A DNA stretch of 64,000 bases from Escherichia coli. GTDB taxonomy: Bacteria > Pseudomonadota > Gammaproteobacteria > Enterobacterales > Enterobacteriaceae. The stretch is taken from the NCBI RefSeq assembly GCF_024502345.1, contig NZ_JALDNN010000001.1; one strand, given 5' to 3'. The notes beneath the pieces are model-generated. The model was not told the origin of the DNA. It made no database searches and worked only from the letters and a program-made list of their open reading frames with translations. The position numbers and the translations under genes were made by a program. How positions within the stretch are numbered: the stretch's first letter is position 1; each line of letters starts with the position of its first letter. Shown piece by piece: positions 24,122 to 62,093 of the stretch.

Positions 24122-24139
24122 GCGCATAAGGGGGGAGGC

Positions 24140-25146: not shown

Positions 25147-25159
25147 AGCTCCCCTTTTC

Positions 25160-45311: not shown

Positions 45312-46280
45312 ATGGTTGTACATTACGACAATGGCAGACAACATCTTATAAAAACCCGTGACCTGAGAGTCTGTGCTTTTTATGCCGGGTGGCTGGGTGT
45401 TAATAAAATAATTAACACCCGTGACATTCCTCACCAGGATGCAGAAAGTTGTCGACAGGCACTCAACAAACTGATTAATCAGTTCATACCGAATGCAGAA
45501 CAGCGGGCAAGACTTTTTTCTGATATGGAAACAGCCCGTGATGAAAACATCCTTCCGCTGGAAAGTTTTGACTGGCTAGAACAGGATGAACGGGCAACAT
45601 TCTGGTTATGGGCGTATATTTGCAAGGCCGGAGACTACGAACTTGGTATTGACAAACCAGCAAATGCAGAGTTCGGAAAGAACTGGTATCAGCGAATGAA
45701 TCTGAGTGTATCTCCGACAAGCCACCAGGAAAGAATTAATATTATCATCTCTTTTTTCGACAACATTATTATTCCGACCCCACCGGTAAATCATCTCAAG
45801 CGCCAGGTCATGGACAGGCTGAAAGACCAGTGGAAAAATATTTACAGCAAACCAGCTCCGCTGAAATGGTTACCTAATGAAGAAGACGCGGTACTGTGGG
45901 CATGGAACAGCCTCAAATCGCTTCAGGAAGAAAGAAATGCGCCCACTATCGGGCTCTCATTAAATATTTCAACGCCAGGAATGAGTACCTGGTTTACCCC
46001 CCTGAGTCATTCTGAACGCAATTTAGCCCTGCGCACGGCGATCGACTTATGGGACGATGCACCGGATACAAAGCGTTTATTCCTTCTGAACCTGAATAAA
46101 GCCTGGAACCAGCAAAAATTACGTCAGTCCCGTACCGATAAAAAAGCACTCAATACGTACCTGAAGAACGAAACAAAAACTCGACTGGACTTTATGGCAG
46201 AACGTAGCGGAGTTCGCATCAGTGATATGCTGGAAATGCTGATTAATGACCATTACCGAAAAACCTGTGGTGGTGAGTGA
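45312..46280 (+). CDS. hypothetical protein (322 aa), orphan gene after a 1.5-kb AT-rich non-coding region
   Basis: Long ORF with normal amino-acid composition; no family recognised. Confidence 0.5.
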   Translation: MVVHYDNGRQHLIKTRDLRVCAFYAGWLGVNKIINTRDIPHQDAESCRQALNKLINQFIPNAEQRARLFSDMETARDENILPLESFDWLEQDERATFWLWAYICKAGDYELGIDKPANAEFGKNWYQRMNLSVSPTSHQERINIIISFFDNIIIPTPPVNHLKRQVMDRLKDQWKNIYSKPAPLKWLPNEEDAVLWAWNSLKSLQEERNAPTIGLSLNISTPGMSTWFTPLSHSERNLALRTAIDLWDDAPDTKRLFLLNLNKAWNQQKLRQSRTDKKALNTYLKNETKTRLDFMAERSGVRISDMLEMLINDHYRKTCGGE

Positions 46281-46629
46281 GGGCTTTGCGCTAAAAACAA
46301 GGTGAGCGGAGGCAGTAATACAGACCAGAAATGACATTCAAAATAATTTCAGACCTATATTACCGGTGTGAGAACGGCAGCAGAAGTGCTGCCGTTTTGT
46401 TATTTCACTCACGGAGGTTAATGTGTCCAGTAAGAACAAACGGGGTCCCGATACCCTGTTACCGTCGTTATTCCTTCTCCCGGGTCAACTGTCCCACAAA
46501 ATACCCGTGCGTATGCTTCTCGCGCTAAGTCACAGCTATGCTTTCTGTTCCGGTACCCAGGTCTCTCTGATACACGGTCCGCCAGCTCATGAAGGCGGCT
46601 ATTTATTGCCAGTAATAAGGGAGAAAGAA

Positions 46630-46926
46630 ATGCATTGTCCGAATTGCGGTTCGCAAAACATACGACTGCGCCATGTGGGTAAAAAGACGGGTGGGGTCAT
46701 TGGCGCAACAGCCGGAGGCATTGCCGGGCTTGAAGGAGCCTCCACCGGTGCGCTGATAGGTTCAGTCATTCCGGTTGTCGGTACGATAGCCGGAGGCCTC
46801 ATTGGTTTTCTGTCCGGCGCCTGTGCTGGTGCGGTGGCAGGCTCTCTGGCCGGAGAACAACTGGACGGTACCGTCTTTGATGAATACGGCTGCACGCAGT
46901 GCGAGCATATCTTCAGTGCACCGTAA
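46630..46926 (+). CDS. small zinc-ribbon / glycine-zipper membrane protein
   Basis: ORF 46423..46926 trimmed to MHCPNCGSQN (GGGAG RBS); CPNC...CTQC Cys pairs flanking a Gly-rich hydrophobic segment. Confidence 0.45.
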   Translation: MHCPNCGSQNIRLRHVGKKTGGVIGATAGGIAGLEGASTGALIGSVIPVVGTIAGGLIGFLSGACAGAVAGSLAGEQLDGTVFDEYGCTQCEHIFSAP

Positions 46927-47112
46927 CGTTAATAAGGGTCAGCCCATCCTGCACAAAGCCTGAGCCGCTGACCGTACTCGCTACGGCACGACTGATGACA
47001 GGGCGTGTCAGCATGCTGTCGTCATTTCAGCTACCTGGCACTAACCCTTTGTTAATTCTCCTGTTTACTGAAAGATGAATTTTACTTTTTCTTTTCCGCC
47101 ATTACGGGGGAT

Positions 47113-47127
47113 GGACATAACGTGTCC
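47113..47127. promoter_or_regulatory. palindrome GGACA-N5-TGTCC (copy 3 of 3), candidate operator
   Basis: GGACAtaacgTGTCC, 60 nt upstream of the ATG at 47188. Confidence 0.45.
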
Positions 47128-47187
47128 CTCCCCGCCCGCATAATAACCGCATGAAATATCAACCTATTTATCGCACACGGAGCGTCC

Positions 47188-47916
47188 ATGCAACGACCCG
47201 ATGAAGAGGCCCGCTACGACCGGCTGGCCGTCAGATTGTCGGTCATTATCAGCCGGTTAATGGCCGGAGAAACGCTGACCCTTCAGACACTGTCCGGTGA
47301 GTTTGGTGTATCGATACGCACCCTGCGTCGTGACTTACATCAACGGCTGGTCCACCTCGACATTATCGGGGAGAACGGCACGTATCGGCTCAGTGAGAGC
47401 GCCACGCGTGATCACTCTCCGGGGGCCGTTTCCTTTGCCCGCAGTACCGGTATCGCACGCATTATCCCGTCGCAGAACCGGCAACTGATGCACCTGCTGA
47501 TGAATGAAACGGGCACCTCACCCTGCTTTATCTGGCACGACTTACCGCCAGCATGGACACAGGCTGACAGTTTTCATCGTCTGGCCGAAGCCATTTGTCA
47601 TCACCGGGTGGTCAGTCTGCTGGTCGGCGGTGTCCGTCACGATGAGCAGGAGCCTTACCGCCTGATTTACCGGCATCAGCACTGGTATCTGGTCGTCTGT
47701 TGCCGGGGGAGCCTTCGGGTGTTCCGGCTGGAAGACATTATCTCGGCCTCACTCTCAGAGCAAACCTTCCGTCGCCGGAGCGAAATCAGTTCGCTCATTA
47801 CTGAAGAGGGATTTATCAGCGCACTGCCCCACTTTCGCTTTATCAGTGATGTCATTCACACCTTCAGGGAACAACACCCTGAACATCCATCCAGACCCAA
47901 AGGAGTCAAATCGTGA
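47188..47916 (+). CDS. HTH transcriptional regulator, YfjR-like (second copy)
   Basis: RLAVRLSVIISRLMAGETLTLQTLSGEFGVSIRTLRRDLH; paralog of ORF 4249..4962; stop overlaps the next start. Confidence 0.6.
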   Translation: MQRPDEEARYDRLAVRLSVIISRLMAGETLTLQTLSGEFGVSIRTLRRDLHQRLVHLDIIGENGTYRLSESATRDHSPGAVSFARSTGIARIIPSQNRQLMHLLMNETGTSPCFIWHDLPPAWTQADSFHRLAEAICHHRVVSLLVGGVRHDEQEPYRLIYRHQHWYLVVCCRGSLRVFRLEDIISASLSEQTFRRRSEISSLITEEGFISALPHFRFISDVIHTFREQHPEHPSRPKGVKS

Positions 47917-48179
47917 AACCTGTCGAAGGCCCTCTGCTGCTCTTCACCCTGATGTTGTCTGCCGTAACCCTGAGCGGCTGTGGCGACAAAAATGAACGCG
48001 AGTTTATCCGGGGATGCAAATCAGGCGGCGGTACTACCGCCGTCTGCGGATGTATCCGGGATGACCTCAAAACGAAATATACGCACGGGGAGCTGGAGAA
48101 AATGAACCAGCAATACGGTTATGTCCCCCCGCGCTTCATGGACAACATGCTGAGCGCTGCTCAGCAGTGCAGAAAATAA
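47913..48179 (+). CDS. small lipoprotein
   Basis: Signal peptide with lipobox LSGC (MKPVEGPLLLFTLMLSAVTLSGCGD...). Confidence 0.55.
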   Translation: MKPVEGPLLLFTLMLSAVTLSGCGDKNEREFIRGCKSGGGTTAVCGCIRDDLKTKYTHGELEKMNQQYGYVPPRFMDNMLSAAQQCRK

Positions 48180-48191
48180 GGAAATCTGAAC

Positions 48192-48503
48192 ATGGCGCTT
48201 GTCATTAAATATTTCGCGATTGCCTTCGCCATCGCGCTTGTGGTCGTGCTGTTTAACGTGTTCGGGAGTACCGGCGAGATACGCAGTTTTGGTCAGGGAA
48301 TGGAATATCTGTTCTGGATGACGCTTGGGCCCGGAGCCGGTATGACGGTCGGTGCTGCTCTTCGACAATGGCTGATGCCGGATGCGGTATACACCCGCGA
48401 AGGAATGACCGGATTACTCAAGGCCCGTCTGTTCTGGCTTGTGGGCCCACAGTATATCGGCTGGCTGGCCGGACTTATCGTCGTGGGTAAACAACTCATG
48501 TAA
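48192..48503 (+). CDS. small membrane protein
   Basis: Three hydrophobic segments; ORF only. Confidence 0.45.
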   Translation: MALVIKYFAIAFAIALVVVLFNVFGSTGEIRSFGQGMEYLFWMTLGPGAGMTVGAALRQWLMPDAVYTREGMTGLLKARLFWLVGPQYIGWLAGLIVVGKQLM

Positions 48504-48549
48504 CACGGCTGCCCCCCAACAACATTTTTGACTGAGAAGGAAAAATACC

Positions 48550-49020
48550 ATGCGATTCATGCACGCCATCCTGTCAGCAGGATTACTGACCTTTGCCATC
48601 ACGGCACAGGCGGTCCCCAATATGTGGAGCAGTGGCTTCGGTATGGGCGTCACCGAGTACATCATCACCAGCCCGGAAAACGTGATGATGAACCTGAACT
48701 GCACCGGCAACCCTGACGACCAGAATATCCTGCAGCATCACGTCATGCTCACCCTGCCTGACGGCAGCGGTGCCGATTCACAGGATGAGAAAACCGCCAT
48801 CACCGTCGTCACGGATGACCAGACGTTCCCCCTGCCGTCCTCTCTGGGCTGGCGTAACGGCGACAACGCCTGGCTGTCGTTCATTGATGCCATCAGAAAA
48901 GCAACGTCGTTTGAGATTTACGTCAACGACAAACAGGTGGGGCACTTTACCCCTTCGGCTGGAAACGTTCACAAGGTTCTGGCTGATATGCCCGAATGCA
49001 CGACACTGACCGCCGGGTAA
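48550..49020 (+). CDS. secreted protein of unknown function
   Basis: Signal peptide MRFMHAILSAGLLTFAITAQA. Confidence 0.5.
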   Translation: MRFMHAILSAGLLTFAITAQAVPNMWSSGFGMGVTEYIITSPENVMMNLNCTGNPDDQNILQHHVMLTLPDGSGADSQDEKTAITVVTDDQTFPLPSSLGWRNGDNAWLSFIDAIRKATSFEIYVNDKQVGHFTPSAGNVHKVLADMPECTTLTAG

Positions 49021-49068
49021 CCCGGCGCATCCCCGGTTTACAGCAAAATCAATCAAGGACAATACGAT

Positions 49069-49581
49069 ATGACCGACATTTCGACACTCAGCCAGCGACT
49101 GACGACGCCAACCCTGCATTTTGTTCTACTCACCGTCGCCACCTGCGGCATCTGGCCGTTACTGTGGCTGTACCGAAAACAGCAGATTATCAGCGACACC
49201 ACCGGATATCCGGTTTGCGGCAATCTGTTTATCATCTGGCTCGCCGTCTGTTTTGGGCTCGGACGACAGTTCGGCGTGATGGCCTCACCGGACCTGGCGG
49301 GCTACTACACGGGCAGCGATACACTGTTGGCCTTAAGCGGCATTCTGTCGCTCACCTGCGGCGTGATGTACATCGTCTGGGCCTTTAAGGCCAGAGCAGC
49401 ACTGCGACACTATGCGCTGAACACCTTCCGGTTTGACCTGAAGATGAATGCGTTTTATACCGTGGTGCTCAACGTCTTCTACATTACATACTGCATCAAC
49501 GATATGCCGCAGGCACTGGCGAAGCACCGCATTATTCATGGTCAGGCCCCTGTGCCGCCGGAGTCTCCGTCACCGCAGTAA
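49069..49581 (+). CDS. membrane protein of unknown function
   Basis: Four predicted TM segments; ORF only. Confidence 0.45.
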   Translation: MTDISTLSQRLTTPTLHFVLLTVATCGIWPLLWLYRKQQIISDTTGYPVCGNLFIIWLAVCFGLGRQFGVMASPDLAGYYTGSDTLLALSGILSLTCGVMYIVWAFKARAALRHYALNTFRFDLKMNAFYTVVLNVFYITYCINDMPQALAKHRIIHGQAPVPPESPSPQ

Positions 49582-49663
49582 CGCAGCTCTCCTCTTATTA
49601 TCCGGCCGGGGCATTCCTGTGTGCCCCAGATTCATCCGGATCCCCCCTCTGAGATTTGACCCA

Positions 49664-49885
49664 ATGACATTACTGAAAATCGTGCTCAACACCCTGCGTC
49701 AGGTGCTGACGTGGTGCGCCAGCAGCCGGGCGCAGCAGTTTGTGGAAGACCACTTCCGCGAAGAAGGCTATGACGAAGACAGTATTTACATCGCCAGACA
49801 GGCGGCAACCCTGCTCGCAGGTGCCTTAATCACAGCGCTCATGGAACAGATACTGCAGCTTATTGCCACACACTTAACCCACTGA
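49664..49885 (+). CDS. hypothetical small protein
   Basis: ORF 49448..49885 trimmed to MTLLKIV...; weak RBS. Confidence 0.25.
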
Positions 49886-49940
49886 TGCCCTGCTCACTGA
49901 GCGGGGCATTTTGTTTTATGCCATTCATCAGGAACTGAAT

Positions 49941-50174
49941 ATGCAAGTCACTGACGATACGTCGTTACCGCCAGGGCAATTCACCCGCCGACAGGCTGAA
50001 GCCGTGGTCACGCTTTACCACAACGTCACTATAGAAGATGACCAGGGTACGCACTTTCGGCTGGTTATTCGCGACAGCGAGGGGACGTTAATCTGGCGGG
50101 CCTGGAATTTTGAAGCCAGTGCCGGGGAATGGCTTAACCGCTATCTGCTCAGCCACGGGATCCCCAAACACTGA
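49941..50174 (+). CDS. hypothetical small protein
   Basis: ORF 49911..50174 trimmed to MQVTDDT.... Confidence 0.3.
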
Positions 50175-50277
50175 CACACCACAGCTTAACCCAATAGCGA
50201 CCACACAAAAAAGCCATGCTCCCACAGGAGCATGGCTGTTTTGTTTATGCCGTTAAATCAACAATAAGGAATTTACC

Positions 50278-50673
50278 ATGAGACTAGCCAGCCGCTTTGG
50301 ACGGACAAACCAGATCCGTCGCGATCGTCCGTTAACCCGCGAAGAACTGATGCAGGTCGTTCCCAGCGTATTCAGTGCAGATCGCCACGGTTCCAGGAGC
50401 GAAAAATACGCTTACATACCCACCATTACTCTGCTCGAAAATCTTCAACGCGAAGGCTTTGAACCCTTCTTCGCCTGCCAGTCACGCGTACGCGACCCTG
50501 ACCGCCGGGAGCACACCAAACATCTGCTGCGCCATCTTTGTAGACCGGAGAATGATGTTTGGATGAAAGCGAGTTTTGGTACCCTCATCATTGAGGGTAC
50601 CAACAGCAAAATACTCGGCGAATGCTATTGTCTAAGCACAGCGCCAAGCCTTAGCGGCACGAATAGTTGTTAA
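50278..50673 (+). CDS. DUF932-like (YfjQ-like) protein, probably 3'-truncated
   Basis: MRLASRFGRTNQIRRDRPLTREELMQVVPSVF... resembles N-termini of CP4-prophage DUF932 proteins as I recall them; ORF ends 2 bp before the convergent res gene. Confidence 0.35.
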   Translation: MRLASRFGRTNQIRRDRPLTREELMQVVPSVFSADRHGSRSEKYAYIPTITLLENLQREGFEPFFACQSRVRDPDRREHTKHLLRHLCRPENDVWMKASFGTLIIEGTNSKILGECYCLSTAPSLSGTNSC

Positions 50674-50675
50674 CC

Positions 50676-53414
50676 TTACTCAGCTTTAGCAAACTGCTGG
50701 GTGAAGTAAGCCAATGAATTAGCTTCTTTTACGGCATCATGCGGAATGAGTAAGTATTTCCAAGGTTTGCCACCGTGCTGTGCAAGGTATTCACTGGCAT
50801 GACTACACCATTTCACACCACTGCGGGCTTTTTCGGTGACTTCCTCATTCCAACTGCCGTCTTGGTTTTGATGTTGAGTACTTTTAGTTTCAATCATCAA
50901 TACATAGTCGGCGGTTTCAGCAACGAAATCCGGCACGTATTCAGGATGCTCGCTACCGCGTTTGTAGTACATCTTGAATTGGCCTTTGGCAGGCTTAAAC
51001 CACTTCTCGCAGTCGCGTTCTAAAATCACCGCAAAACGGCGCTCAGTGTCTGAATCAAACTTTTGCAATGGGTATAGACAACGGCTAAAGCCGCCAAAGA
51101 GCATTTGTTTGATGCGACTGACATCGCGTACTGTATCACGGTAGCTTTGCACCGGCTGGTCTTGCGCTATGGTGTAAGCGCAGTCACGTAAGGTACTAAA
51201 GCCACTGCGTACATCGACGACGTACTCGGTTGCTTCTTCAAAGAAGTGGTTGTTCAGTTGCGCATGAATTAACTTCGCAATCGCATCACTCTGGTTTTGC
51301 AGAATGTTCTCAACCACATCGTCGTCGTTTTCAGCGGCCAGTGTATTGACAGCTTGAGTGGCTAGGTCAAACAAAAGTTCAGCTTGCTCGTCGTAAGGAA
51401 TATCGTCGTAATCGAACAGCTTCTTCAAAATATAGTTTTGTTTCACCGGCTCGTAGTTGCCCGAATCGCCTTCGCCACGAATGGTTTGGTGATTGTCTTG
51501 CAGGCTTTGTTGAATCAGAGTTCGGTCGATAGGTTTTAAACCTTTAATGGCAGCAATGTCCAAATCGAACGGGTGATAGCCGGTACGTACTTCACCTGAT
51601 GGTGAAACAATAATACGCGGAATATCTATGGTGTTATCCACCGTGAGCTGGGTGACTTGCTCAACAATCGCCGCAATATCCACCGATTCTTCAGTAAATA
51701 GCTCCCGTTGCTCTTGGGTTAACTGAGCTTTTACTTGTTCGGTGATCTGTGCTTTTACCTCAGTCGTTAACAATGCTTTGCTGGTCGGCGCATCGGTAGG
51801 GCGTGTTTGATATTGCTTGATCACGTCCAATGCAGCGCGGGCAACGGTTTGTTGGTTAGGCGTGGTATAAGTGGCTTTAGGTTCTTGTACCTCACGGTTA
51901 CCGTCTGCACCGGTTGCGGTTACACCTGAACCAGTCAGTTGCTGCTCTAGGTTCGATTTAACCTGCACACTTTGTTTGGTTACATCGTCTTCTGGGCGAT
52001 CTAATACGCGTGTTTTCAGGCGCAGTGGGTTATTCGGGTCGTTAGCCTCATCAACAATTTCTTGGAATTTGTCGTGCGCAACAATGCTCAGCGTATCGAC
52101 GGCTTCAACACCTGTACGTTTGCCATAAGGTAAACGCAAACCACGGCCAATTGACTGTTCAATTAGGGTTCTGGCGTTGGCTGCACGTAGTGGCACAATG
52201 GTGTACAGGTTAGTAACGTCCCAACCTTCTTTCAGCATGTTAACGTGAATGACGATCTCGGTTGGCTCATCGACATGCTCAACATTGAGCAGTGCTTGAA
52301 TAGTTTCTTCTTCTTTTTTACTGCTATCCACTTGAATGACTTTGCCACGGTAGCGGCCGTCAAACACTGTTTCAAGTTTGGTTAAAAGCTCTGCTGCATG
52401 CGTGGTATCACGGGCAATCACCAACATAAAAGGCTTAACTAACTTAGCATCGTTTTCATGTGCATAAGTGATTAAATCCACCTTGGTTTGCTCATGTAAA
52501 CGAATACCGTCCATTAACTTAATGGTTTCTAGTTCGTCTTTATCATATTGGCTGGCATCAAAGTTACGCTGAGTAACAACGGCAGGCTCTTTAACAAAAC
52601 CATCATCCATGGCACAGGCCAATGGGTAATCAATCACCACATTTTTAAAGTGCACAGGGCCACGACTTGATTCGGTAAATGGTGTGGCCGTTAGCTCTAA
52701 TGCGAATAGTGGATTAAGCTCATTGAGCGCACGCATACCGGCATCGGCACGATAGCGATGCGATTCGTCCATCAGCAGCACTAAGTCAGGTAAGTTCGAT
52801 AGATACTCAAAGTAGCTTTCGCCTAGGGTTTCCGCTAAACGCTTAATACGCGGGGCTTTGCCTCCACGTACTTCGGTGTTAATTTTCGCGATGTTAAACA
52901 CATTGATCCGAACCGAACCAAATAGATCGCCCATGACTTGTGCGCCGCGGCTCTCATAGTTATCACCGGTGATCACTTCTGGCGGTGCTAGCACAAAATC
53001 GGTAATGCCTTTAAACACGTACTTCGGTGAGGCGGGCGAGAAATCGCTGATCAGCTTTTCATAAATAGTCAGGTTAGGTGCCAACACAAAATAATTGCGA
53101 ATGCCATGTACCTGATACAAATAGGTAATAAACGCCCCCATCAAACGGGTTTTACCTACACCTGTTGCCAAGGCAAAACACAGTGAAGGAAAGTCACGTT
53201 CAAAATCGCTGAGCTTAGGAAACTGCGCTTTTAAGGTTTCTAATAGCTCCGGCACATCGCGTTTTGGGTTCAGTAGTTTGTGCTCAGAAGCACTAATCGC
53301 CACTGCCAACGCACGCAGCGAATCTTGCTGCGGCTGGCGTAAGCTTAAACGGCCAATAATATTATTAATGGCACGTAATTGGTCGGGTTTTAAGCTTGAT
53401 AAATCCATGGTCAT
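50676..53414 (-). CDS. type III-like restriction enzyme Res subunit (SF2 helicase plus C-terminal PD-(D/E)xK nuclease)
   Basis: 912 aa; Walker A LATGVGKTRLM; DEAH-like motif LVLLMDESHR; C-terminal ...YVPDFVAETADYVLMIETK... reads as a PD-(D/E)xK core. Confidence 0.75.
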   Translation of the reverse strand: MTMDLSSLKPDQLRAINNIIGRLSLRQPQQDSLRALAVAISASEHKLLNPKRDVPELLETLKAQFPKLSDFERDFPSLCFALATGVGKTRLMGAFITYLYQVHGIRNYFVLAPNLTIYEKLISDFSPASPKYVFKGITDFVLAPPEVITGDNYESRGAQVMGDLFGSVRINVFNIAKINTEVRGGKAPRIKRLAETLGESYFEYLSNLPDLVLLMDESHRYRADAGMRALNELNPLFALELTATPFTESSRGPVHFKNVVIDYPLACAMDDGFVKEPAVVTQRNFDASQYDKDELETIKLMDGIRLHEQTKVDLITYAHENDAKLVKPFMLVIARDTTHAAELLTKLETVFDGRYRGKVIQVDSSKKEEETIQALLNVEHVDEPTEIVIHVNMLKEGWDVTNLYTIVPLRAANARTLIEQSIGRGLRLPYGKRTGVEAVDTLSIVAHDKFQEIVDEANDPNNPLRLKTRVLDRPEDDVTKQSVQVKSNLEQQLTGSGVTATGADGNREVQEPKATYTTPNQQTVARAALDVIKQYQTRPTDAPTSKALLTTEVKAQITEQVKAQLTQEQRELFTEESVDIAAIVEQVTQLTVDNTIDIPRIIVSPSGEVRTGYHPFDLDIAAIKGLKPIDRTLIQQSLQDNHQTIRGEGDSGNYEPVKQNYILKKLFDYDDIPYDEQAELLFDLATQAVNTLAAENDDDVVENILQNQSDAIAKLIHAQLNNHFFEEATEYVVDVRSGFSTLRDCAYTIAQDQPVQSYRDTVRDVSRIKQMLFGGFSRCLYPLQKFDSDTERRFAVILERDCEKWFKPAKGQFKMYYKRGSEHPEYVPDFVAETADYVLMIETKSTQHQNQDGSWNEEVTEKARSGVKWCSHASEYLAQHGGKPWKYLLIPHDAVKEANSLAYFTQQFAKAE

Positions 53415-53435
53415 TATAATTATCCTTATTAACCG

Positions 53436-55142
53436 TTAATCTTGCGCTGCATCGTCATCGGCAGACGCATCGTCAGTTAGGTTTGCCACGTTTAACGAAT
53501 AATCGTCCTGACCAAATTGGCACTTGTCTAAAATGGCTTTTGGCAGTTTTTTCAAGGTTAAATTGGTAAAACGACCTGGCTCGCAGCGAAATGCACCACA
53601 CATAACCAGTAAAGTTCGGTCACTGCCAACTTCTTCTGACAGCGCTTCTAATTTATCTACCGATAAGCTTTGTGTGGTGACATAAATATGATCCGTCTCG
53701 GTTGAATAACCGTGATCCCACCAATTCACTTCCGATGGCGCATAGGTAAAACCTTCCAGCTTACAAACGGCTTCGGCGAGCATTTCTGGGTTGTACTCTT
53801 TATTGATCACTTCCAAGCCAAACTTATCTTTCACAATTAAGGTCGGGGCAAGTTTGTAATAGCGGAAGCCACCGCCACCTTGCCAGTTTACAGACTTAGA
53901 AATACCACCTTGATCTTCGCCATCAATCACTTTTTGCAAGCGCGGGATAATATGGGTATGACAATGATCACCTAGCTCGACCGAGATCCAACGTCTTTTC
54001 ATCTTGTGAGCTACAGCAGCAGTAGTTCCCGAACCACCGAATGAATCAAAGACTAAATCGCCTTCTCGCGTACACATTTCGAAAATCCGCTTCAAAAGCG
54101 CTTCGGGTTTTTTTCCATTTTTGAAACTAACGCCGCCTTCATTTGCTATTCCATTCCAACTAATGTCAGTCCAAACATCAGTTATTAGTTCAGCAGGTTG
54201 CATCTCACCGTCAATTTCCAAAAGCCTATTGGAGTAAAAGACCATTTGCCTACCATTTGCGATATAAAAGCCTTCGACATCCTCATTTGGATGTACATAA
54301 ACCTTATCCCTATCTTTCTTTGACTTCTCGATAGTTTCTTTTCTCTTTATTTTAGCACCACCACCAATTGCAACGGATTGAAATACACGTTCTGCATTAT
54401 CAATTGCGAATTGTGCTAATTCATCATCAAATGTATCAGGCAGTTTTTTCTTGGCTTCTTTTGTATCTTTATAGCCATTGGCCTTTGCAAACGCATCGGC
54501 AATACCGCACCACGTCCAACTTTTATAATGGTCATCTGGGTTTAATAGATATTTGTTATATCCCGTATCATATCCTTTAGGTATATAGATTTTGTTAAGC
54601 GGTTTCTGGGTGCGATCTTTTGCGTATACAAGCAAAAAGTTTACTGTGGAGAAAACTGTGGCCCCTGTTGCCTTAAAGCCTGAAGGGTCATTTGTGGTCA
54701 TCGATATGGTATTTAACTGATTTGCACGACCAAAAATCTCGTCCATCAAAACTTTTAAATAAGCCATTTCGCAGTCATCTAAGTGAACGAATATTACTCC
54801 ATCATCACTTAGTAGATTACGAATTATTTCTAACCTATCCCTCATTAAGCCCAGCCAAATGGAATGCTCCAGACCATCATCATAGTGCTCAAAAGCACTT
54901 CCGGTATTGAATGGTGGGTCTATGTAAACACACTTCACTTTGCCTGCATATTCTTGCTCTAGCGCCTTCAATGCCAATAAGTTATCGCCAAAAATCAGTT
55001 TATTATCAAAAATATCGTTTTCGGTCACTTTTTGGCTGGCGTGATAAGACTTGCTCGGGTCTTCTAACAAAATGCGCGGCTCTAACTTTTTGCGCTCGTT
55101 TTTGCCTATCCAGGTCAGTTCTAATTTGGTTTTGCTCATCAT
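53436..55142 (-). CDS. type III-like Mod DNA methyltransferase (beta-class N6-adenine/N4-cytosine)
   Basis: 568 aa; motif IV DPPFNTG near the N-terminus and motif I FDSFGGSGTT about 290 aa later (order IV-TRD-I). Confidence 0.8.
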   Translation of the reverse strand: MMSKTKLELTWIGKNERKKLEPRILLEDPSKSYHASQKVTENDIFDNKLIFGDNLLALKALEQEYAGKVKCVYIDPPFNTGSAFEHYDDGLEHSIWLGLMRDRLEIIRNLLSDDGVIFVHLDDCEMAYLKVLMDEIFGRANQLNTISMTTNDPSGFKATGATVFSTVNFLLVYAKDRTQKPLNKIYIPKGYDTGYNKYLLNPDDHYKSWTWCGIADAFAKANGYKDTKEAKKKLPDTFDDELAQFAIDNAERVFQSVAIGGGAKIKRKETIEKSKKDRDKVYVHPNEDVEGFYIANGRQMVFYSNRLLEIDGEMQPAELITDVWTDISWNGIANEGGVSFKNGKKPEALLKRIFEMCTREGDLVFDSFGGSGTTAAVAHKMKRRWISVELGDHCHTHIIPRLQKVIDGEDQGGISKSVNWQGGGGFRYYKLAPTLIVKDKFGLEVINKEYNPEMLAEAVCKLEGFTYAPSEVNWWDHGYSTETDHIYVTTQSLSVDKLEALSEEVGSDRTLLVMCGAFRCEPGRFTNLTLKKLPKAILDKCQFGQDDYSLNVANLTDDASADDDAAQD

Positions 55143-55196
55143 TTCTGTGCTCTTATCTTGTGTTCGTTACTTAGCGTTATTATTCTACAGCAATCG

Positions 55197-57062
55197 CTAC
55201 GCAGGTTGTGCTTGGCGATTACTCGCTTGGGTGTTTTGCCCTTGTCGGCGTTGCGCTTGCTCGGCTAAGTAACTGAATAAATTCTGGTTGTGTGGGTCGT
55301 TCGCTTGAAGGCGTTCTTGTTTTGCTACAACTGCCGGGCTTTCTGCCAAGTTTAAATGGCTAATCCACACCGTTTGCATTAAACGTGCGGTATCGCCCAA
55401 GCGTTTGAAGTATGCGTGCGGCGCACTGCCTAATACTAATGCCGTAAAACTATCAAAAAATTGCTGACGAAGTTCATCAAAAGCGTGGCTGATTAATCTT
55501 TTAAATGCCGCTTGCTCGGTAATCTCAGGAGCCGTAATAGCGCCTTCAAACTGCGCCATTAATAGCGTGGTTATGCAGTAAGTAAAATGTCGATATACCA
55601 GTTTTTCTGGGCTTGGACTACTGCGCTCTGCGTTTGTACATAAGACTTGAATAGCCAGATAGCAGTTCACCGCGTTAATGGCGACGGCCCCCTGTAAATC
55701 TGTACTAAAAACGGCTTGGTACTCGGCACTTTCTTGGTTAGTGAATTTGCTTGGCTCTACTTTTAGCTGATAAGGCACGCGTACATCACCGTGCATACAG
55801 GCCAATGCTTTGGCCAAGGTGTCGATAGTAATGCTGCGAATACCCGCTGCTGCGCTTTGTTGTGGGCGGTAGAGATATTCAACACCAAACATTTTCATCT
55901 CTTGGCGCAAGCGTTCTTGGGTATCATCCAGCGCGGCAAAGTTGGCTAAATCGACCGGGTTTTGCAGGTTACGCGCTTTGGTTACTTGTTTGTGAAATGC
56001 ATCGTTACCCGTGTTGATAATGGTTACCATCACTTGAGCTTGGCTGATGTCTGCATTTGGGTTTTCACGCATAAACTGTGCAGCACTAGCAATGGTTTGT
56101 GCACCGTTAACGACGGACAGGCCATCGACTGCAACATGCTTGCTACCTGTGTGGCCTCTAATATTCCCTTTTGGTTTTACTGCATTGCCAACCAGAGTAA
56201 TGCCATTGTTAAGATAAATAAAATTTTCCGGCTCATGTAAAAGGGTGTCTTTAATCGCCCTATTTACCCCACGTCTGCCAGCACCAATAAAATAGCGAAT
56301 ATTTTTCTCGTAAAGTTTACGGTCATGAGTAGTGTGCAAGGCAATTAAATCGGTTAGCTTGGCGATACCAAATACGACTTTTCGTGGTTGTTCTTGCACT
56401 CGGAACTTATATACAGCGACACGCTCGTTTACCGTATCAACCGCATGTTCACTGCGAAGAGCCTGCTCAACATCGGTGGCGGTGTATTCTTGATATTCAG
56501 GTGCGATTTGCTCTTCACCTTCATCAATCAGCTCTTGGATCGCTGGTTGTAGGTAGTTTTGTGCTTGTATGGTAATGCCATTACCTGTGTATGCGACAAG
56601 CAGTTGAATTCTTTCGCACTCGTCTAATGCGGCTTCAATATTTGCTTGAAGGTTTTGAACATTTTGATTAAAGCGGTGAAATTGCTTGTTTAAAAGTAAC
56701 TTTACACCCTCAATAAAAGCCTGTGCTTCGCCCAATTGGAATTGCGCATCTTCCTTCATTTTTGACTGTACTAAGTACAGAGTCTGATCAGCTTCGTGAT
56801 AATAAATTGCATCAATACCATGGTCTTCATAGTCGTCCACCACAGCTTTTGCTGCGGTCACTACGTCTAAATCGAATTTTTGCTGTAGTACGAATGCGCT
56901 AAAAGCCCTGGAAATTTGCTTTTTAGGTTTATCTTCTCGCCCACCTTGCCCAAGCAATGGCGGTAAATGCGGCACAAAACGCTGCTGTAGCAGTTCTTTT
57001 AATAGGGTAAGAAATTGTGGTTGTAATGCTGCCAAGTGAGTTGTCCTTATTTTTATTGCCAA
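55197..57062 (-). CDS. AIPR-like putative abortive-infection protein (tentative) with N-terminal PD-(D/E)xK-like motif
   Basis: 621 aa; N-terminal ...[22 protein letters not shown]... resembles a nuclease core; family assignment from memory only; start overlaps the upstream Abi_2 gene by about 10 nt. Confidence 0.35.
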
Positions 57063-57994
57063 ATTGGCCGCGCTTGCCAGTCGGCTGGAAAGCCCATGCG
57101 GTCAATGTCTATTTGGTGATGATTTATCAATTGGATGAGTCGTTGCTTCCAGTGATGTTCACCACTGATCACATCCATGAGGTAGCCCAACATCACCAAG
57201 GTGTTATAAATTTTTCGTAAACGCCGGTCGCTATCGGGCAGGTTTTGCAAGCTTTGAATCAGTGCCGGTTCACCATGGCGTGGCAGTACCGTGGTTTTAA
57301 TAAAATCACGGTTCCATAGCCTAGAATGATGGGCACTTAAATTGCGCACTAGCGACAAATGCTCACAGAATGAGGTAAGAGTTTTTTCATCTAGGCCGTA
57401 GCTTTTGCTTATTACCTGGCGGTCGGCACGCAGCTTGATATTGCTGTACCAACAGGAAAGTTGCCCCATGGTTAACAGCTCAACACAGGCCCAAATAGGG
57501 GGTAGTGGCTCTTGATATTTTTGCGTAAGGTGCTTGATGAACTCTTCACGACTGCACTTTACCTCACCCGTGAGTTTGCCAAGGCTACTGGCGTATTCTA
57601 ATAAATCACCAAAGAGCTCTGGTTTTAAATGAGGGTGCGCGGTTTGGTATTTTTGGCTCAACTGATACGCAATTTGTGTGCGTAATGACACCTCAAAACG
57701 CTCGATGGCATCTAGCACTAACAAACGTAGTTCACGGTCGAAAACATATAGGCTTAGGACTTGGTCAAACTGAGTACCTGTGATAAACGTATGACTGGCA
57801 TGATCTTGCTCATAGGGCAAACAATAAGCCGCAAAACGATAGTAGTTCAGCTGTGCTAAGTAAAACTCAGCTTTCGGGACATCACTGATCACTAGGCCAC
57901 GTTGTTGCAACAAGCGTACTTGATCGCTAAAGCTTGTAGGGGGCTTGGTAAAAGCGACTTTAGGGACTGGTTTGCGGCTCATTTGACCTCCCAT
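57053..57994 (-). CDS. Abi_2 family (AbiD/AbiF-like) abortive infection protein
   Basis: 313 aa; ...FGDLLEY... and ...[19 protein letters not shown]... match the hallmark Abi-like motifs as I recall them. Confidence 0.65.
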
Positions 57995-58139
57995 GCAACA
58001 GAAGATCGAATTTTGCGGGCCCCAGAAACGAGTAACCCCTCACAGGGCGCTGATCTGACGGGTAGCGGGAGGGGTGTTGTTGCAGTGATCATAGCCCCAA
58101 ACTGAAAAAAGTCAATGCTGGCGTTGAAATTGATTGTCA

Positions 58140-61034
58140 TCATTGAACCGTCCACCCAATGGTAAATAGGGTCTCTTGGCTGGTTTTTTTATTCAGTTTG
58201 CCTTCTAAGCTTTCAATCAGCTGTTCGCGCTTTTCGTCCACTTCATCTTGTTTATCAAACAGTTCACGGCGGCTTTTATTGCGCTGACTTTCTAACTGGC
58301 GCTGCTGTTTTTGCAGGGCAAGTTTCTCTTCCAGGGTTGGAGCTATTTTGGCTTCGCGGCGTACTTGCTTGATTTGCTTATCAAGCTCTTTTATAGATTG
58401 TTCAAGCCCTTCTTTTAAATCGTCTGCCCAAGAATCTAACTTGTTTACCTCTTGCTCGAAGAAGCTGAGATTACGATCGTTAACTTGCTTTTCGATGCCT
58501 AGTCTCGACTGCTGTAACGCATGCTGCAGCGCATATTGATAGCCAGGATATAAGGCGGCAAGTTCTTGCTCACTTACTTCACTTTGCACACAGGCACTAA
58601 GCTGCATCAGCTTTTGCACGACTTCACTTGGTAGCGGATGACCATGTTCATCTTGCGCGGCGAACAATAAATGGTCTTCGCTACGCTCCAATGATTCGAC
58701 ACTAAATTTTTGTAGGCTTAGTACACCTGACAAACCCACTAAGGGTTCTAGCATACTGATTTTTGTTTGGTGGTTGCTGTAATCAAAAATTACGCTGGCA
58801 ATGGGTAATTCACGTTGAAGCGCGTTGCTGATCACCCATTCACCCAGCGGGTGGGTGATACGATACACATGGGCATTGGCTAGTTTACCGGTTTCAATAC
58901 TGCCGCTTTGCTGTCCTCGGCGTACAAGTTGGTAGCTACCTGTAGGAGCCTGATTGATACTTTGATTAAGCGTAAAACTATGGTTGCTTGGGTCAATGTC
59001 TGCGATAGCTGCAAGTTCATGCGTACTGAGTTGCCAGAACCAACGGCCTACTTTATCGAGGCGTTGCTGCGCGGCATCTAGCTGAATTTTGAGTAAGTCG
59101 TGAATATCTTCATCGAAATTTTCCAGCAGCAGTTGCTGGGTCTCGCGCATTTTTTGGTTGATGTCGGCTTCTAGCTCTTTTTGCAATTGATCAAAAGCTG
59201 CTTCTATTTCCGCCGGTTGCCGACAAGTCTCGTATATATTTTGGATGCGTTTTTCAAAATCAATACCAGATTCAATGCTGCCTAGCACATCGTCCGATGC
59301 ACCAAACACGCCATCGAACAGATGGAATTTTTCAGTCAGTAACTCTAAAACACGCTGATCGGCTTTGTTGGCTTCGTTGAGGAAGTTGATCACCACAACA
59401 TCAAATTGCTGCCCATAGCGGTGACAACGGCCAATACGTTGCTCTACTCGTTGTGGGTTCCATGGTAAGTCATAGTTAATAAGTAACGAACAGAACTGTA
59501 AGTTAACCCCTTCTGCAGCCGCTTCGGTTGCGATCATAACTTCGGCATGATGGCGGAAGTAATCAATTAGGGCAGTACGGCGGTCAATTTGCGGTGAACC
59601 ACTCACCTTATCACTACCTTGGTTTTCAGCTAACCACTGCTGATAAACTTTGGTTGCTTCTGGATGGTTATTGCTGCCACTAAAGGTGACTAATTTATCA
59701 GCAAAGCCATTCGCCTCGAGGAAACGAGCTAGGTATTCTTGCGTGCGCTTCGATTCGGTAAAAATAATGACTTTACGTGGCGCCCCCATTTCCTCCATTT
59801 TGGCAAACCCTTGATTAAGCGCCGTTAGCAAGGCTTGGGTTTTACTGTCGGTGGTAATGGATTTAGCCTGCTCGATATAATGCTCAAGCTCGGCTATTTC
59901 AGCATTGAGTAACTCAAAGTCAATATCACTCTCAGGGGTATTGCTTTGTGTTTCTTCTACATACTCGCTGTACTCTTCTCCTAAATCATCACTCTCAACA
60001 AGCTCACTGATAATATCGAGGTCCGATTTAGCCTGTACTTTCAAGTCAACCAATCGGCGCTTTATAGTTTCGAGTGTGTTGAGCACTGCGTGCGAACTAG
60101 ATGCTAATAGCTTTCTCAGTATAAGGCCGGTTAAATGACGTTGGCTCTTGGGTAGTGCATAGCTCTCGTCCTTTTCCAATAAGGCACTAATACTTTCGTA
60201 AAGTGCCATCTCAGCATTAGAGGGTGTAAACGGTACGGTGAGTGTTTGACGTTGGGTATAGCGGACGTATTCGAGTACATCTTTGCGCAAGGTACGCTGA
60301 ATAAACCCGGTAAGTCGTTTCTTTAAATGCCCTAGCGCACTTTCGTTATTGACAAAGTGTTGTTTGAAGCTTCGCTCATCGCCGAAGATTTGATCGTCGA
60401 TAATGGTTGAAAGTCCATACAATTCCATGAGCGAGTTTTGTAAGGGTGTTGCAGTAAGTAATAGCTTTTTACTGCCATCTAATGCGCGGCGTAGCGTTTG
60501 ACCCATTTTATTGCTGCTACGATGTGCATTACGTAGCTTGTGCGCTTCGTCGATGACGACAATATCCCATGGCTCTAGCATTAGCTGCGTTTCCATTCTC
60601 GCAGCATAGTGATAGGACATAATAGAAACGCAGTGATTAGCTAGCGGGTTAGTTTGACCATTGTTAACACTAATGCGCCACGTTTTTGCATCAAGCACTT
60701 GCGTTGGTAAATTAAACTTATCGCCCAATTCCTGCGCCCACTGGCGTCGCAATGACGCCGGGCAGATGATCAATATGCGGCGTTTACGCTCTGCCCAATA
60801 CTGTGACAGTACTAAGCCTGCTTCAATAGTTTTCCCTAAGCCCACTTCATCAGCGAGTACAACACCTTTGCTTAACGGGTTGTTGAGCGCAAAAAGTGCC
60901 GCATGAATTTGGTGCGGATTGAGATCAACACTGGCATCAAAAAGAGATTGAGACAATTTATCAACGCCATTTTCAGCGTGGCGAATGGTTAATTCCTGCG
61001 CAAAGTATTTTGCTTGATAATCAGTTATTACCAT
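58140..61034 (-). CDS. SNF2-family (SWI2/SNF2) DEAD/DEAH-box helicase with long coiled-coil C-terminal extension
   Basis: ORF 58140..61115 trimmed to the ATG at 61034 that overlaps the stop of the upstream HTH gene (ATGGTAATAACTGA); motifs LADEVGLGKTIEAG, IVVIDEAHKLRN, helicase C motif ...QRIGRCHRYGQ.... Confidence 0.85.
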   Translation of the reverse strand: MVITDYQAKYFAQELTIRHAENGVDKLSQSLFDASVDLNPHQIHAALFALNNPLSKGVVLADEVGLGKTIEAGLVLSQYWAERKRRILIICPASLRRQWAQELGDKFNLPTQVLDAKTWRISVNNGQTNPLANHCVSIMSYHYAARMETQLMLEPWDIVVIDEAHKLRNAHRSSNKMGQTLRRALDGSKKLLLTATPLQNSLMELYGLSTIIDDQIFGDERSFKQHFVNNESALGHLKKRLTGFIQRTLRKDVLEYVRYTQRQTLTVPFTPSNAEMALYESISALLEKDESYALPKSQRHLTGLILRKLLASSSHAVLNTLETIKRRLVDLKVQAKSDLDIISELVESDDLGEEYSEYVEETQSNTPESDIDFELLNAEIAELEHYIEQAKSITTDSKTQALLTALNQGFAKMEEMGAPRKVIIFTESKRTQEYLARFLEANGFADKLVTFSGSNNHPEATKVYQQWLAENQGSDKVSGSPQIDRRTALIDYFRHHAEVMIATEAAAEGVNLQFCSLLINYDLPWNPQRVEQRIGRCHRYGQQFDVVVINFLNEANKADQRVLELLTEKFHLFDGVFGASDDVLGSIESGIDFEKRIQNIYETCRQPAEIEAAFDQLQKELEADINQKMRETQQLLLENFDEDIHDLLKIQLDAAQQRLDKVGRWFWQLSTHELAAIADIDPSNHSFTLNQSINQAPTGSYQLVRRGQQSGSIETGKLANAHVYRITHPLGEWVISNALQRELPIASVIFDYSNHQTKISMLEPLVGLSGVLSLQKFSVESLERSEDHLLFAAQDEHGHPLPSEVVQKLMQLSACVQSEVSEQELAALYPGYQYALQHALQQSRLGIEKQVNDRNLSFFEQEVNKLDSWADDLKEGLEQSIKELDKQIKQVRREAKIAPTLEEKLALQKQQRQLESQRNKSRRELFDKQDEVDEKREQLIESLEGKLNKKTSQETLFTIGWTVQ

Positions 61035-61227
61035 CCAACACCCCTTTTCCTTGAGCTGCTTGCGTACTGATCCATTCTTCAAGATCGGATTGTTTAAAGC
61101 GCCAAGCATTGCCAACTTTAAAAGCAGGAATTTTATGTACCGCTGCTAGACGGTAAACAGTTCTCTCATTTACCTTCAAATACTCAGCTACTTCTTTAAT
61201 TGTCAGAACGGTATCAGTCATTTTCAC
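61021..61227 (-). CDS. small excisionase/MerR-like HTH DNA-binding protein, first gene of the operon
   Basis: 68 aa; ...LTIKEVAEYLKVNERTVYRLAAVHKIPAFKVGNAWRFKQSDLEEWI.... Confidence 0.6.
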   Translation of the reverse strand: MKMTDTVLTIKEVAEYLKVNERTVYRLAAVHKIPAFKVGNAWRFKQSDLEEWISTQAAQGKGVLDGNN

Positions 61228-61433
61228 TCGGCCACTTTGAAAAGTGCGTCAATTATCTAATGCGAGTGTCAAAATAGTACAAATAAGTACATGAATCAAT
61301 CTTATTCGGCACTTGCCGGAGCTCCTTGGCTTTAATCCTCATCAATTTTAGGTACAGTTTTCAGGCTCGGGGATAAAGTATAAAGAATGTCGTACTGCCG
61401 CTGCCAGAGCAATATTCCCCCCTGCTGGTTGTA

Positions 61434-62093
61434 TCAGAGATGGTATGCCGGTATTTTGCGGGTTGTTCCCGTCAGGTTATCGTGCACCTCCACGGTCGTC
61501 GTTACCACCGGCATTCCGGCCTTTCTCAGCCTCAGGACATCAGCCGCAATACGCTGACTGCCAAACCAGAACAGGCCGTCCAGTGCAGTCACCAGTAAAC
61601 CTGCCTCCAGCGCATACTTCAGCCGTTCACGGGGCGCTTTCACTTCCCTGGCAACCTGCTGATATGGCGATGATGTGCTTTCATTCCCAACCACGCGACG
61701 AATACGGTGAGACAGATGATACCGGTATATATCCGGCACACCAGAAAGACTGGCCTTCAGGCTGTACACGCAGCCAAACCGTTTATCGTTGAACACCACA
61801 TTTTTCTGGCTGATGCCCCATTCTTCACGCAGCGCGGCAATCAGTTGTGGTGTCCGGGTAAGCAGCAAGCGAAAAGGCAGCTCAAAACTGGTGACGTAAT
61901 CCACATTCAACAATGCAATACGCAGTCGTTCTTCTGGCCCGGCCTCTGTCTGCCGACACTCCTCCAGAACATCCTGCCACTGCCGGCGAAGACGGGGCGA
62001 TTCGTTCCGTTCTGTAAAACAGTATTTATCTGCCAGATAATCAATTCGTGTACGCATACTGAAAAGAATTCCGTATAAAGATTCAGCAGACAA
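61434..62093 (-). CDS. hypothetical protein (219 aa)
   Basis: ORF only. Confidence 0.4.
   Translation of the reverse strand: MSAESLYGILFSMRTRIDYLADKYCFTERNESPRLRRQWQDVLEECRQTEAGPEERLRIALLNVDYVTSFELPFRLLLTRTPQLIAALREEWGISQKNVVFNDKRFGCVYSLKASLSGVPDIYRYHLSHRIRRVVGNESTSSPYQQVAREVKAPRERLKYALEAGLLVTALDGLFWFGSQRIAADVLRLRKAGMPVVTTTVEVHDNLTGTTRKIPAYHL

Follow-up and report, generated by a model that had tools for sequence, protein, structure and literature searches.

A mobile Escherichia coli cassette that joins an SNF2-family ATPase gene to type III-like mod and res genes and carries embedded cargo genes

Several methylation-based immune systems of bacteria contain an ATPase of the SNF2 family, namely DrmD in class 1 DISARM, ArmA in ARMADA, BrxHII in BREX type 3, and HmaA in Hma. 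The host systems of these motors are large and hard to dissect. In class 1 DISARM (DrmD, DrmMI, DrmA, DrmB, DrmC), the SNF2 helicase directly precedes an adenine-type methyltransferase. In ARMADA type II and BREX type 3, the ATPase is SNF2/RapA-like, and its partners are an N6 methyltransferase and an effector that is a helicase or a nuclease; for ARMADA, the SNF2 protein ArmA has proved essential (10.1101/2025.09.15.676423). In the Hma/DUF499 systems, the SNF2 helicase is joined by a methyltransferase and one more ATPase (10.1101/2024.01.29.577857; PMC11232893). Here we analyze a cassette from a 64,000-nucleotide (nt) stretch of an Escherichia coli genome (assembly GCF_024502345.1, contig NZ_JALDNN010000001.1; hereafter the window). 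In this natural E. coli locus the same kind of motor is joined to the best-understood ATP-dependent restriction chemistry, that of the type III restriction-modification (R-M) proteins Mod and Res. Each part of the cassette and the principle of gene embedding are known already; the trio of SNF2, Mod, and Res is widespread and apparently undescribed.

The cassette is a minus-strand module of approximately 10.8 kb at about 50534-61376, as delimited by where homology with other E. coli genomes ends. It contains six co-oriented minus-strand genes (50676-61227) in the order HTH, SNF2, Abi_2, AIPR, Mod, and Res. The initial annotation had placed these six open reading frames (ORFs) and named their families; the ORF list confirmed all coordinates, and profile searches confirmed all six assignments. 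The first gene of the proposed core (58140-61034, minus strand) encodes an SNF2-family ATPase of 964 amino acids (aa) with the Pfam domains SNF2-rel_dom (2e-34) and Helicase_C (1e-16) and intact motor motifs GLGKT and DEAH. Among solved structures, RapA and chromatin remodellers are its closest relatives. The family is conserved along its full length, including the C-terminal 325 aa, which are predicted to form a beta-rich domain and a long coiled-coil hairpin (pLDDT 92). A profile of this C-terminal domain matches 2229 clusters at E<=1e-10, and the domain appears to mark a distinct subfamily. No nuclease domain was found in SNF2, either among its Pfam domains or by matches of the C-terminal model.

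The second core gene (53436-55142, minus strand) encodes a Mod methyltransferase of 568 aa, recognized by the PADLOC model MTase_III (PDLC03636, 7e-285) and the Pfam domain N6_N4_Mtase (PF01555). It belongs to the beta class because DPPF (residue 75) precedes FGGSG (368), and its relatives in the PDB are the Mod proteins of H. pylori and EcoP15I. The third core gene (50676-53414, minus strand) encodes Res, a protein of 912 aa with an SF2 ATPase and a C-terminal PD-(D/E)xK nuclease (Pfam ResIII; PADLOC REase_III, PDLC03648, 9e-191). The residues of the nuclease signature, E791, D829, E842, and K844 (E842-x-K844), are invariant in 18 homologues, as are GVGKT and DESH. SNF2, Mod, and Res have all kept their catalytic motifs. 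No Res homologue was found in phage genomes at E<=1e-20.

Among described systems, type III R-M is the closest to Mod and Res. In both cases Mod is of the beta class, has its target-recognition domain in the centre, and is encoded upstream of Res, which combines an SF2 ATPase and a PD-(D/E)xK nuclease at the C-terminus. The Mod and Res proteins of EcoP15I are the nearest or near-nearest solved structures. Type III enzymes are further characterized by an asymmetric recognition site of 5-6 bp, hemimethylation, and ATP-requiring cleavage some 25 bp from the site, for which two unmodified sites in inverse orientation are necessary. The predicted structure of Res is mediocre (pLDDT 75.7, pTM 0.43), and only its top Foldseek match was used; this match is EcoP15I Res (4zcf_C, 4.9e-10), with low TM-scores. 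Judged by the architecture of Mod, the domains of Res, and the position of Res directly after mod, the cassette appears to qualify as type III R-M. It differs from the known enzymes in having a conserved third gene, SNF2, upstream and a cargo slot between the partner genes. In addition, the window Res is only distantly related to EcoP15I Res (3e-6 by phmmer), and the hhalign match to EcoP15I-like Res (98% probability) covers the ATPase core only. Another feature shared with type III R-M is the exchange of specificity between alleles. The Mod proteins of the window and of a Salmonella plasmid allele are nearly identical at their ends and far more diverged at residues 150-350, approximately. The central target-recognition domain has been swapped between near-identical flanks, as expected of a working specificity subunit.

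The other candidate systems were compared with PADLOC and NCBIfam hidden Markov models, which were used gene by gene rather than as system-level calls. In agreement with the initial annotation, which had not recognized the gene order, no named multi-gene system matched: DrmA/B/C, PglZ/BrxC, MAD2-8, HmaB/C, and a YprA-type helicase are absent. Class 1 DISARM and the cassette are both methylation-based, in both the SNF2 gene precedes the methyltransferase gene, and the motor core of the window SNF2 is closest to DrmD models. However, the match to PADLOC DrmD (PDLC02619, 1.7e-208) is confined to residues 57-692, and the match to NCBIfam DrmD_b (NF038318) reaches 697 bits, below the cutoff of 950, and covers only positions 22-656 of 868 in the profile; the SNF2 C-terminus is different. 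DrmA is a weak secondary match of the same protein (2.7e-44 vs. 1.7e-208 for DrmD). None of the six proteins matches DrmB or DrmC in PADLOC, and no other ORF longer than approximately 250 aa is present at 47-64 kb. The cassette lacks DrmA, DrmB (DUF1998), and DrmC (PLD), its effector is the Res helicase-nuclease, and its Mod is of type III rather than DrmMI. Membership in class 1 DISARM was rejected, given the absent core triplet and the subthreshold DrmD_b score.

The Hma systems resemble the cassette not only in combining an SNF2 helicase and a methyltransferase with a further ATPase, but also in having a hotspot occupied by diverse defence genes in about two-thirds of loci (10.1101/2024.01.29.577857; PMC11232893), and the cargo families overlap (HEC-01, HEC-06, PD-T4-4, Ppl-like). 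The cassette has neither the DUF1156 methylase HmaB nor the DUF499 ATPase HmaC, and its SNF2 lacks the fused nuclease of HmaA, matching the HmaA model weakly (1.7e-56) in comparison with DrmD. As HmaB and HmaC have no match, membership in Hma or the BREX-related DUF499 systems, as defined in PMC11232893, was rejected. ARMADA type II and BREX type 3 use PglX-like methyltransferases and either YprA/DUF1998 helicases or PglZ/BrxC, none of which is found in the cassette. ARMADA membership was rejected for lack of ArmC, the YprA-like DEAD/DEAH helicase that contains DUF1998, and of a PglX-like methyltransferase (definition in 10.1101/2025.09.15.676423); BREX membership, for lack of PglZ/BrxC matches, the SNF2 protein matching BrxHI/HII helicase models only weakly. 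A search of the literature for a named system of SNF2 with type III Mod/Res found none, which is weak evidence since most subscription journals and REBASE lay outside the search.

To describe the genomic surroundings of the SNF2 subfamily, one genome per species was scanned. The scan yielded at least 562 relatives, and 79 loci were fetched, whose ORFs were searched with the window proteins plus sequences representing two additional Mod/Res lineages. SNF2 was full-length in 66 species-representative loci, and at least 7 kb of downstream sequence was available in 42 of them. Mod and Res follow SNF2 on the same strand in 34 of the 42. Three more contain Mod only, preceded by 4-6 kb of inserted genes that push Res out of range; one has a Res-like gene upstream of SNF2 instead, and two are degraded. 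Overall, SNF2 is syntenic with Mod/Res in approximately 90% of loci, and the synteny extends over Proteobacteria, Firmicutes, Bacteroidota, Verrucomicrobia, Planctomycetes, Chloroflexi, Deinococcota, and other taxa. Compact three-gene operons occur in Heliorestis, Polynucleobacter, Pseudomonas, Paracoccus, Agrobacterium, and Ketogulonicigenium, where the genes overlap or abut each other (gaps from -19 to +20 nt). In locus L036 the order is permuted to Mod-Res-SNF2.

The reciprocal check, a tblastn search of plasmids with Res as the query, gave the same association. SNF2 lies upstream of every full-length plasmid Res homologue inspected, in six hosts: Salmonella (HTH-SNF2-IS256-Abi'-Mod'-Res), Deinococcus (SNF2-AIPR-HTH-VapC-Mod-Res), Aeromonas (WYL-SNF2-AAA-DUF4276-Mod-IS-Res, where IS is an insertion sequence), Sphingopyxis (SNF2-hypothetical-Mod-Res), Roseomonas (SNF2, a 1-kb gap, Mod-Res), and Ketogulonicigenium (SNF2-Mod-Res, abutting). 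This conservation shows SNF2 followed by Mod and then by Res to be a widespread three-gene restriction-modification core.

The SNF2 subfamily is partnered by three lineages of Mod/Res, all of type III according to PADLOC. Lineage A, to which the window belongs, has PDLC03636 with PDLC03648. Lineage B, with 03634 and 03647, is EcoP15I-like (phmmer 3e-59 to 4zcf_C; e.g., L011 and L039). In lineage C, with 03646 and 03654, Mod and Res have about 1000-1130 aa each (e.g., L047, L018, L010, and L053), and no relative of its Res (PDLC03654) was found in the PDB. SNF2 and the Mod/Res pairs appear to have recombined repeatedly. Within lineage A, the three core proteins diverge at an equal mean rate, with about 48% pairwise identity, and pairwise identities among the SNF2 proteins vary in step with those among the Res proteins (matrix correlation r=0.79, Mantel p about 0.0005). 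The SNF2 proteins of Corallococcus and Archangium (L072-L075) share only the first approximately 660 residues with the window SNF2 and have a different, longer C-terminus; the products of neighbouring genes (764 and 859 aa) have no PADLOC match. These loci may represent another SNF2-centred system.

The two genes between SNF2 and Mod behave differently from the core. The first (57053-57982, minus strand) encodes an Abi_2/AbiD-family protein of 309 aa (313 aa from the ATG at 57994), with matches to Pfam Abi_2 (PF07751, 4.6e-51) and PADLOC AbiD (3.4e-71). Its start is probably the ATG at 57982, which has the Shine-Dalgarno sequence GGGAGG. The protein contains an R-x4-H motif (RNLSAH) that agrees with the R-x4-6-H pattern of Abi_2/AbiD HEPN proteins, a family of predicted HEPN RNases. 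The second gene (55197-57035, minus strand) encodes an AIPR/AbiU-like protein of 612 aa (621 aa from the TTG at 57062), with matches to Pfam AIPR (PF10592, 3.7e-38), PADLOC AbiU (1.4e-37), and the PHROG family 'Abi alpha-like' (6e-69). AIPR is also a predicted HEPN RNase (PMC3506569). An overlap of the two genes, noted in the initial annotation, hinges on the TTG at 57062; the start used by RefSeq and preceded by AAGGA is the TTG at 57035, 17 nt past the Abi_2 stop. The intergenic gaps are about 145-157 nt between SNF2 and Abi_2, 54 nt between AIPR and Mod, and 21 nt between Mod and Res. A scan of the region for promoters and terminators gave counts not above those in shuffled sequence and a single good promoter-like site, TTGACT-16-TATGAT (58088-58115, minus strand), which lies in the SNF2/Abi_2 gap and is the best in the region (consensus match 10/12).

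Comparison of lineage A loci demonstrates that the place between SNF2 and Mod is a variable one. The gap exceeds 300 nt in 18 of 26 loci (69%) and is at most 60 nt in seven; a second, smaller gap that holds inserts is found between Mod and Res. The contents are known or candidate defence genes that vary by locus, and nearly all inserted genes are on the same strand as the core. AIPR alone occupies the slot in Vibrio, Marinobacter, Pseudomonas, Nitrosomonas, and Deinococcus, while Abi_2 together with AIPR is found in E. coli and in one metagenome-assembled genome (MAG). Other gaps contain HEC-01A ATPases, a PD-T4-4_A-like ATPase with a small gene, PDC-S13, PDC-S02 (PD-DExK), PDC-S05, PDC-S06, HerA, SoFic, GmrSD-like HEC-06, a PD-Lambda-2_B-like protein, LmuB-like ATPases, a Ppl-like protein, AAA with DUF4276, or toxin-antitoxin pairs. 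AIPR and Abi_2 are missing from most SNF2-Mod-Res loci, which have unrelated cargo or none. At the same time, Abi_2 homologues are found in 394 plasmid records, compared with 35 for Res, and AIPR homologues occur alone on 5.6-kb plasmids. The initial annotation had tied both the SNF2 gene and the 621-aa gene to Mod/Res. This stood for SNF2, linked to the pair across phyla, and failed for AIPR, as such a link did for Abi_2.

Natural alleles demonstrate the same difference. Five E. coli genomes have an internal deletion in AIPR with the core kept. Four E. coli genomes and Salmonella plasmids share a second allele of the cassette. It encodes SNF2 and Res that are 98-99% identical to those of the window and a Mod whose central target-recognition domain is different, contains an IS element (IS256 or IS1) in the SNF2/Abi gap, and lacks AIPR. 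Its Abi_2 is only 64% identical and is frameshifted, as seen in the Salmonella IncFIB plasmid pR18.1595_113k (L087, 3724-13739) and in E. coli CUPF09 (L095). On plasmids, the second allele adjoins the resistance genes floR, tet(A), and aph. In these alleles, deletions, frameshifts, and IS insertions strike the cargo and leave the core intact. Since AIPR and Abi_2 are absent from most core loci, are free-standing elsewhere, and are broken in alleles that keep the core, the cassette is not a six-component system. The proposal of a single composite system of six genes has to be replaced by that of a three-gene core with a regulator and embedded cargo.

By their distribution, Abi_2 and AIPR are exchangeable cargo. 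They lie between core genes in the same orientation, vary among homologous loci, and are found outside the host system, as is characteristic of embedded defence genes. Embedding has been published for Hma, BREX, DISARM, and type I R-M, and not for type III (bioRxiv 10.1101/2024.01.29.577857). A link of AIPR and HEPN proteins with type III R-M was noted in 2012 (PMC3506569).

The remaining gene of the cassette (61021-61221, minus strand, ATG at 61221) encodes a small excisionase/MerR-type HTH protein (HTH_17 type) of 66 aa. The overlap with SNF2 seen in the initial annotation is real and amounts to 14 nt: SNF2 starts with the ATG at 61034, and the HTH gene stops at 61021-61023. Only 10 of 77 loci, redundant E. 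coli copies counted, have a MAD1-like HTH immediately before SNF2, and in the Aeromonas locus a WYL protein takes its place; the HTH is optional in the system. The protein narrowly passes the NCBIfam MAD1 model (81.9 bits vs. a cutoff of 80) and also matches the excisionase model TIGR01764 and PADLOC mad1 (3e-10). RefSeq/PGAP names it 'mads1 ... MAD1' in the window, L001, L002, L095, and L096, with no other MADS gene present. The MAD1 match and the association with methylation are what the cassette shares with MADS; MAD2-MAD8 are absent, including the pair of type I-like methylase (MAD2) and specificity protein (MAD5). In MADS, MAD6, MAD7, and MAD8 are mandatory (10.1101/2023.03.30.534895). 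MADS membership, suggested by the RefSeq label, was rejected, as only the HTH matches. Neither the 'mads1' label nor the DrmD matches are evidence of MADS or DISARM, and the label risks false MADS calls.

The distribution of the cassette in E. coli points to a mobile unit. Sequence 50540-61370 is represented in 30 of 5426 complete E. coli genomes, and in 24 of these 80% or more of it is present. The array with all six genes shows 99.9% conservation in 18 E. coli genomes, compared with 93-98% in the MAG, which is gammaproteobacterial. At least two chromosomal contexts are observed in E. coli, a large island with IS elements and a small island at selC (tRNA-Sec). Positions 525-11377 of the query 50000-62000 are also present in the selC island of strain 2014C-3011; there the shared sequence ends at window position 61376, adjoining setC. 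The cassette is also present on 15 Salmonella plasmids, several of them typed as IncFIB conjugative plasmids. On the left, 44000-50533 is 100% identical to E. coli EH09-18-41, whose intact DUF932 gene of 819 nt belongs to a CP4-57-like island. In the window this gene is cut by the cassette approximately 255 nt in, leaving an N-terminal stub (50278-50533, plus strand; identity to EH09-18-41 ends at 50533), the ORF of which runs on into cassette DNA to 50673. The truncated gene had been noticed in the initial annotation, together with a higher AT content than in the flanks, which was confirmed (GC 0.40-0.47 inside vs. 0.50-0.55 outside). Its suggestion of recent acquisition of one co-oriented cassette by a CP4-like island holds, the island being CP4-57-like. 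The cassette is a discrete unit that has moved whole between two E. coli islands and Salmonella plasmids; no direct or inverted repeats that might explain this mobility were found at its ends.

A probable explanation of these data is a layered defence module, in which methylation-dependent type III-like restriction is combined with a conserved third partner, SNF2, and with exchangeable cargo. The trio is established by comparative genomics, and its mode of action is what we infer. By homology to EcoP15I, Mod would mark host DNA at a short site chosen by the swappable central target-recognition domain. By analogy with the same enzyme, it would also supply DNA recognition for Res, which would cut unmodified incoming DNA. 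SNF2 would be a co-inherited ATP-driven double-strand DNA translocase in the same pathway. It may dock via its coiled coil and either bring Mod-Res to foreign DNA or stimulate its action there, or else strip such DNA of bound proteins, a proposed role that matches the SNF2 partners of class 1 DISARM (DrmD), ARMADA (ArmA), BREX type 3 (BrxHII), and Hma (HmaA). The HTH protein may serve as an optional transcriptional regulator. Abi_2 and AIPR would be independent abortive-infection genes, probably with their own promoter, and would provide a fallback for cases in which restriction is evaded or blocked. A comparable case is PrrC, an RNase toxin encoded inside the EcoprrI operon that reportedly backs up restriction. 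PrrC differs in being an anticodon nuclease of the ABC-ATPase kind, and its host system is type I R-M. Back-up of this kind was proposed in general terms as the immunity-suicide coupling hypothesis (PMC3506569).

The degree to which SNF2 depends on Mod/Res, and the reverse, can be graded. Functional coupling seems to us rather likely. That SNF2 is strictly required for restriction is close to an even question, with doubt slightly prevailing, and the idea that SNF2-Mod-Res forms a distinct, unnamed class of ATP-dependent R-M with the SNF2 translocase as an obligatory third subunit is somewhat less likely than not. Several points weigh against the coupled module. The part of SNF2 in restriction is proposed by analogy. 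Canonical type III enzymes such as EcoP15I need Mod and Res alone, and a distant actinobacterial relative of Res (30% identity over half the length) forms a plain Mod-Res pair. Two of the 42 loci are clear negatives in which SNF2 has no Mod/Res; one is next to CRISPR-Cas I-E. E. coli MB46 (L096, 8031-13041) contains HTH-SNF2-IS1-Abi-IS1 and has lost Mod/Res, apparently via IS1. In a neighbour-joining tree of SNF2, which has no support values and is a coarse guide, the three Mod/Res lineages are intermixed; the same SNF2 with three intermixed lineages also fits a portable accessory rather than a subunit. The SNF2-Res Mantel correlation partly reflects plain co-transfer, and the candidate promoter in the SNF2/Abi_2 gap, a consensus match only, is possibly the cargo's own.

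Many of these observations would be natural if SNF2 were a gene of its own, either an accessory or a stand-alone defence gene, that accompanies type III R-M modules, being neither a subunit nor needed for restriction; it might then counter anti-restriction or act on other targets. Such a gene would persist without Mod/Res, as in MB46 and in the CRISPR-associated locus mentioned above, and HmaA alone was reported to be protective (PMC11232893). However, the window SNF2, unlike HmaA, has no nuclease domain. The gene order is fixed, the start and stop codons of SNF2 and Mod overlap in compact loci, the association holds in about nine-tenths of loci and for all inspected plasmid Res genes of full length, and SNF2 and Res diverge equally, with correlated identity matrices. 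An independent accessory thus appears unlikely. As for the reading with six mutually dependent genes, which casts Abi_2 and AIPR as integral effectors or sensors, the tight packing and co-orientation, the high conservation of the array in E. coli and the MAG, the recurrence of AIPR in the slot in at least five distant genera, and the earlier-noted linkage of AIPR to type III R-M (PMC3506569) speak for it. The patchy occurrence of Abi_2 and AIPR in core loci, their presence apart from each other and outside the cassette context, and the intact core of AIPR-deleted and Abi-frameshifted alleles make it improbable.

Another scenario is a chance juxtaposition of four unrelated units, namely orphan DrmD, AbiD, AbiU, and type III R-M, in a defence island, and indeed PADLOC and NCBIfam models label the genes separately, with no covering system-level model, and the window is rich in other defence genes. 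We regard this as very improbable, as it is contradicted by the neighbourhood counts, by synteny kept across many phyla, and by the movement of the whole cassette between islands and plasmids; the spread of taxa argues against counts stemming from closely related mobile elements. Finally, the locus could be conceived as what is left of class 1 DISARM or MADS after decay and loss of the remaining genes, given that the best SNF2 match is a DrmD model and that the HTH passes MAD1 and is labelled 'mads1'. The DrmD_b score is below the cutoff, the C-terminal third of SNF2 is unmatched, Mod is of type III, DrmA/B/C and MAD2-8 have no match, no other large ORFs are found at 47-64 kb, the MADS proteins MAD6-8 are mandatory (10.1101/2023.03.30.534895), and the trio is complete and conserved by itself. 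Such decay is the least credible of the explanations and can practically be set aside.

Several other features of these loci and of the window were observed. The Deltaproteobacteria MAG locus L032 (3347-12664) has the SNF2 homologue followed by cas3 and cas8e of type I-E CRISPR-Cas, and a DUF262 (GmrSD-like) gene lies near the MB46 remnant. The window contains a second defence cluster at 5394-13433 (plus strand), in which a gene for a 625-aa HEC-05 (GmrSD-like) protein (PADLOC PDLC04151, 3.9e-231) immediately precedes the full gene set of a type I R-M system: hsdM at 7475-9031, hsdS at 9028-10200, and hsdR at 10317-13433. An integrase gene at 14517-15782 comes after this cluster. At 30167-32305 (minus strand) a 712-aa ABC/LmuB-like ATPase is encoded, whose entire length is covered by a match to PADLOC candidate PDC-S06 (PDLC04889, 1.3e-297); relatives from the PDC-S06 family are also cargo in SNF2-Mod-Res loci, e.g., L054. 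A second AT-rich dip (43500-46500, GC 0.39-0.44) holds an ORF of 322 aa (45312-46280) that has no NCBIfam or PADLOC match and is called 'hypothetical' by RefSeq in the identical EH09-18-41 island. Two heavy-metal P-type ATPases (ZntA/Cd-type and CopA-type; 21563-27655, minus strand) are located between the two defence clusters, which gives the window the look of an island mosaic. It contains no tRNA gene.

In summary, with three core genes and with cargo-free natural versions in other bacteria, the SNF2-Mod-Res cassette provides a compact E. coli model for SNF2 motors. If SNF2 is needed for restriction, this would be the simplest system for learning why. If it is not needed, SNF2 would be a portable accessory whose role, be it countering anti-restriction or widening the target range, would be of interest in itself. 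Should SNF2 prove to be obligatory, the trio would form an evolutionary bridge from type III R-M to class 1 DISARM, ARMADA, BREX type 3, and Hma, and the junction of SNF2 and Mod would be a conserved landing site for cargo, extending 'guilt by embedding' to type III systems. The gap between SNF2 and Mod, filled in about two-thirds of the loci of the lineage, is a practical source of candidate defence genes.

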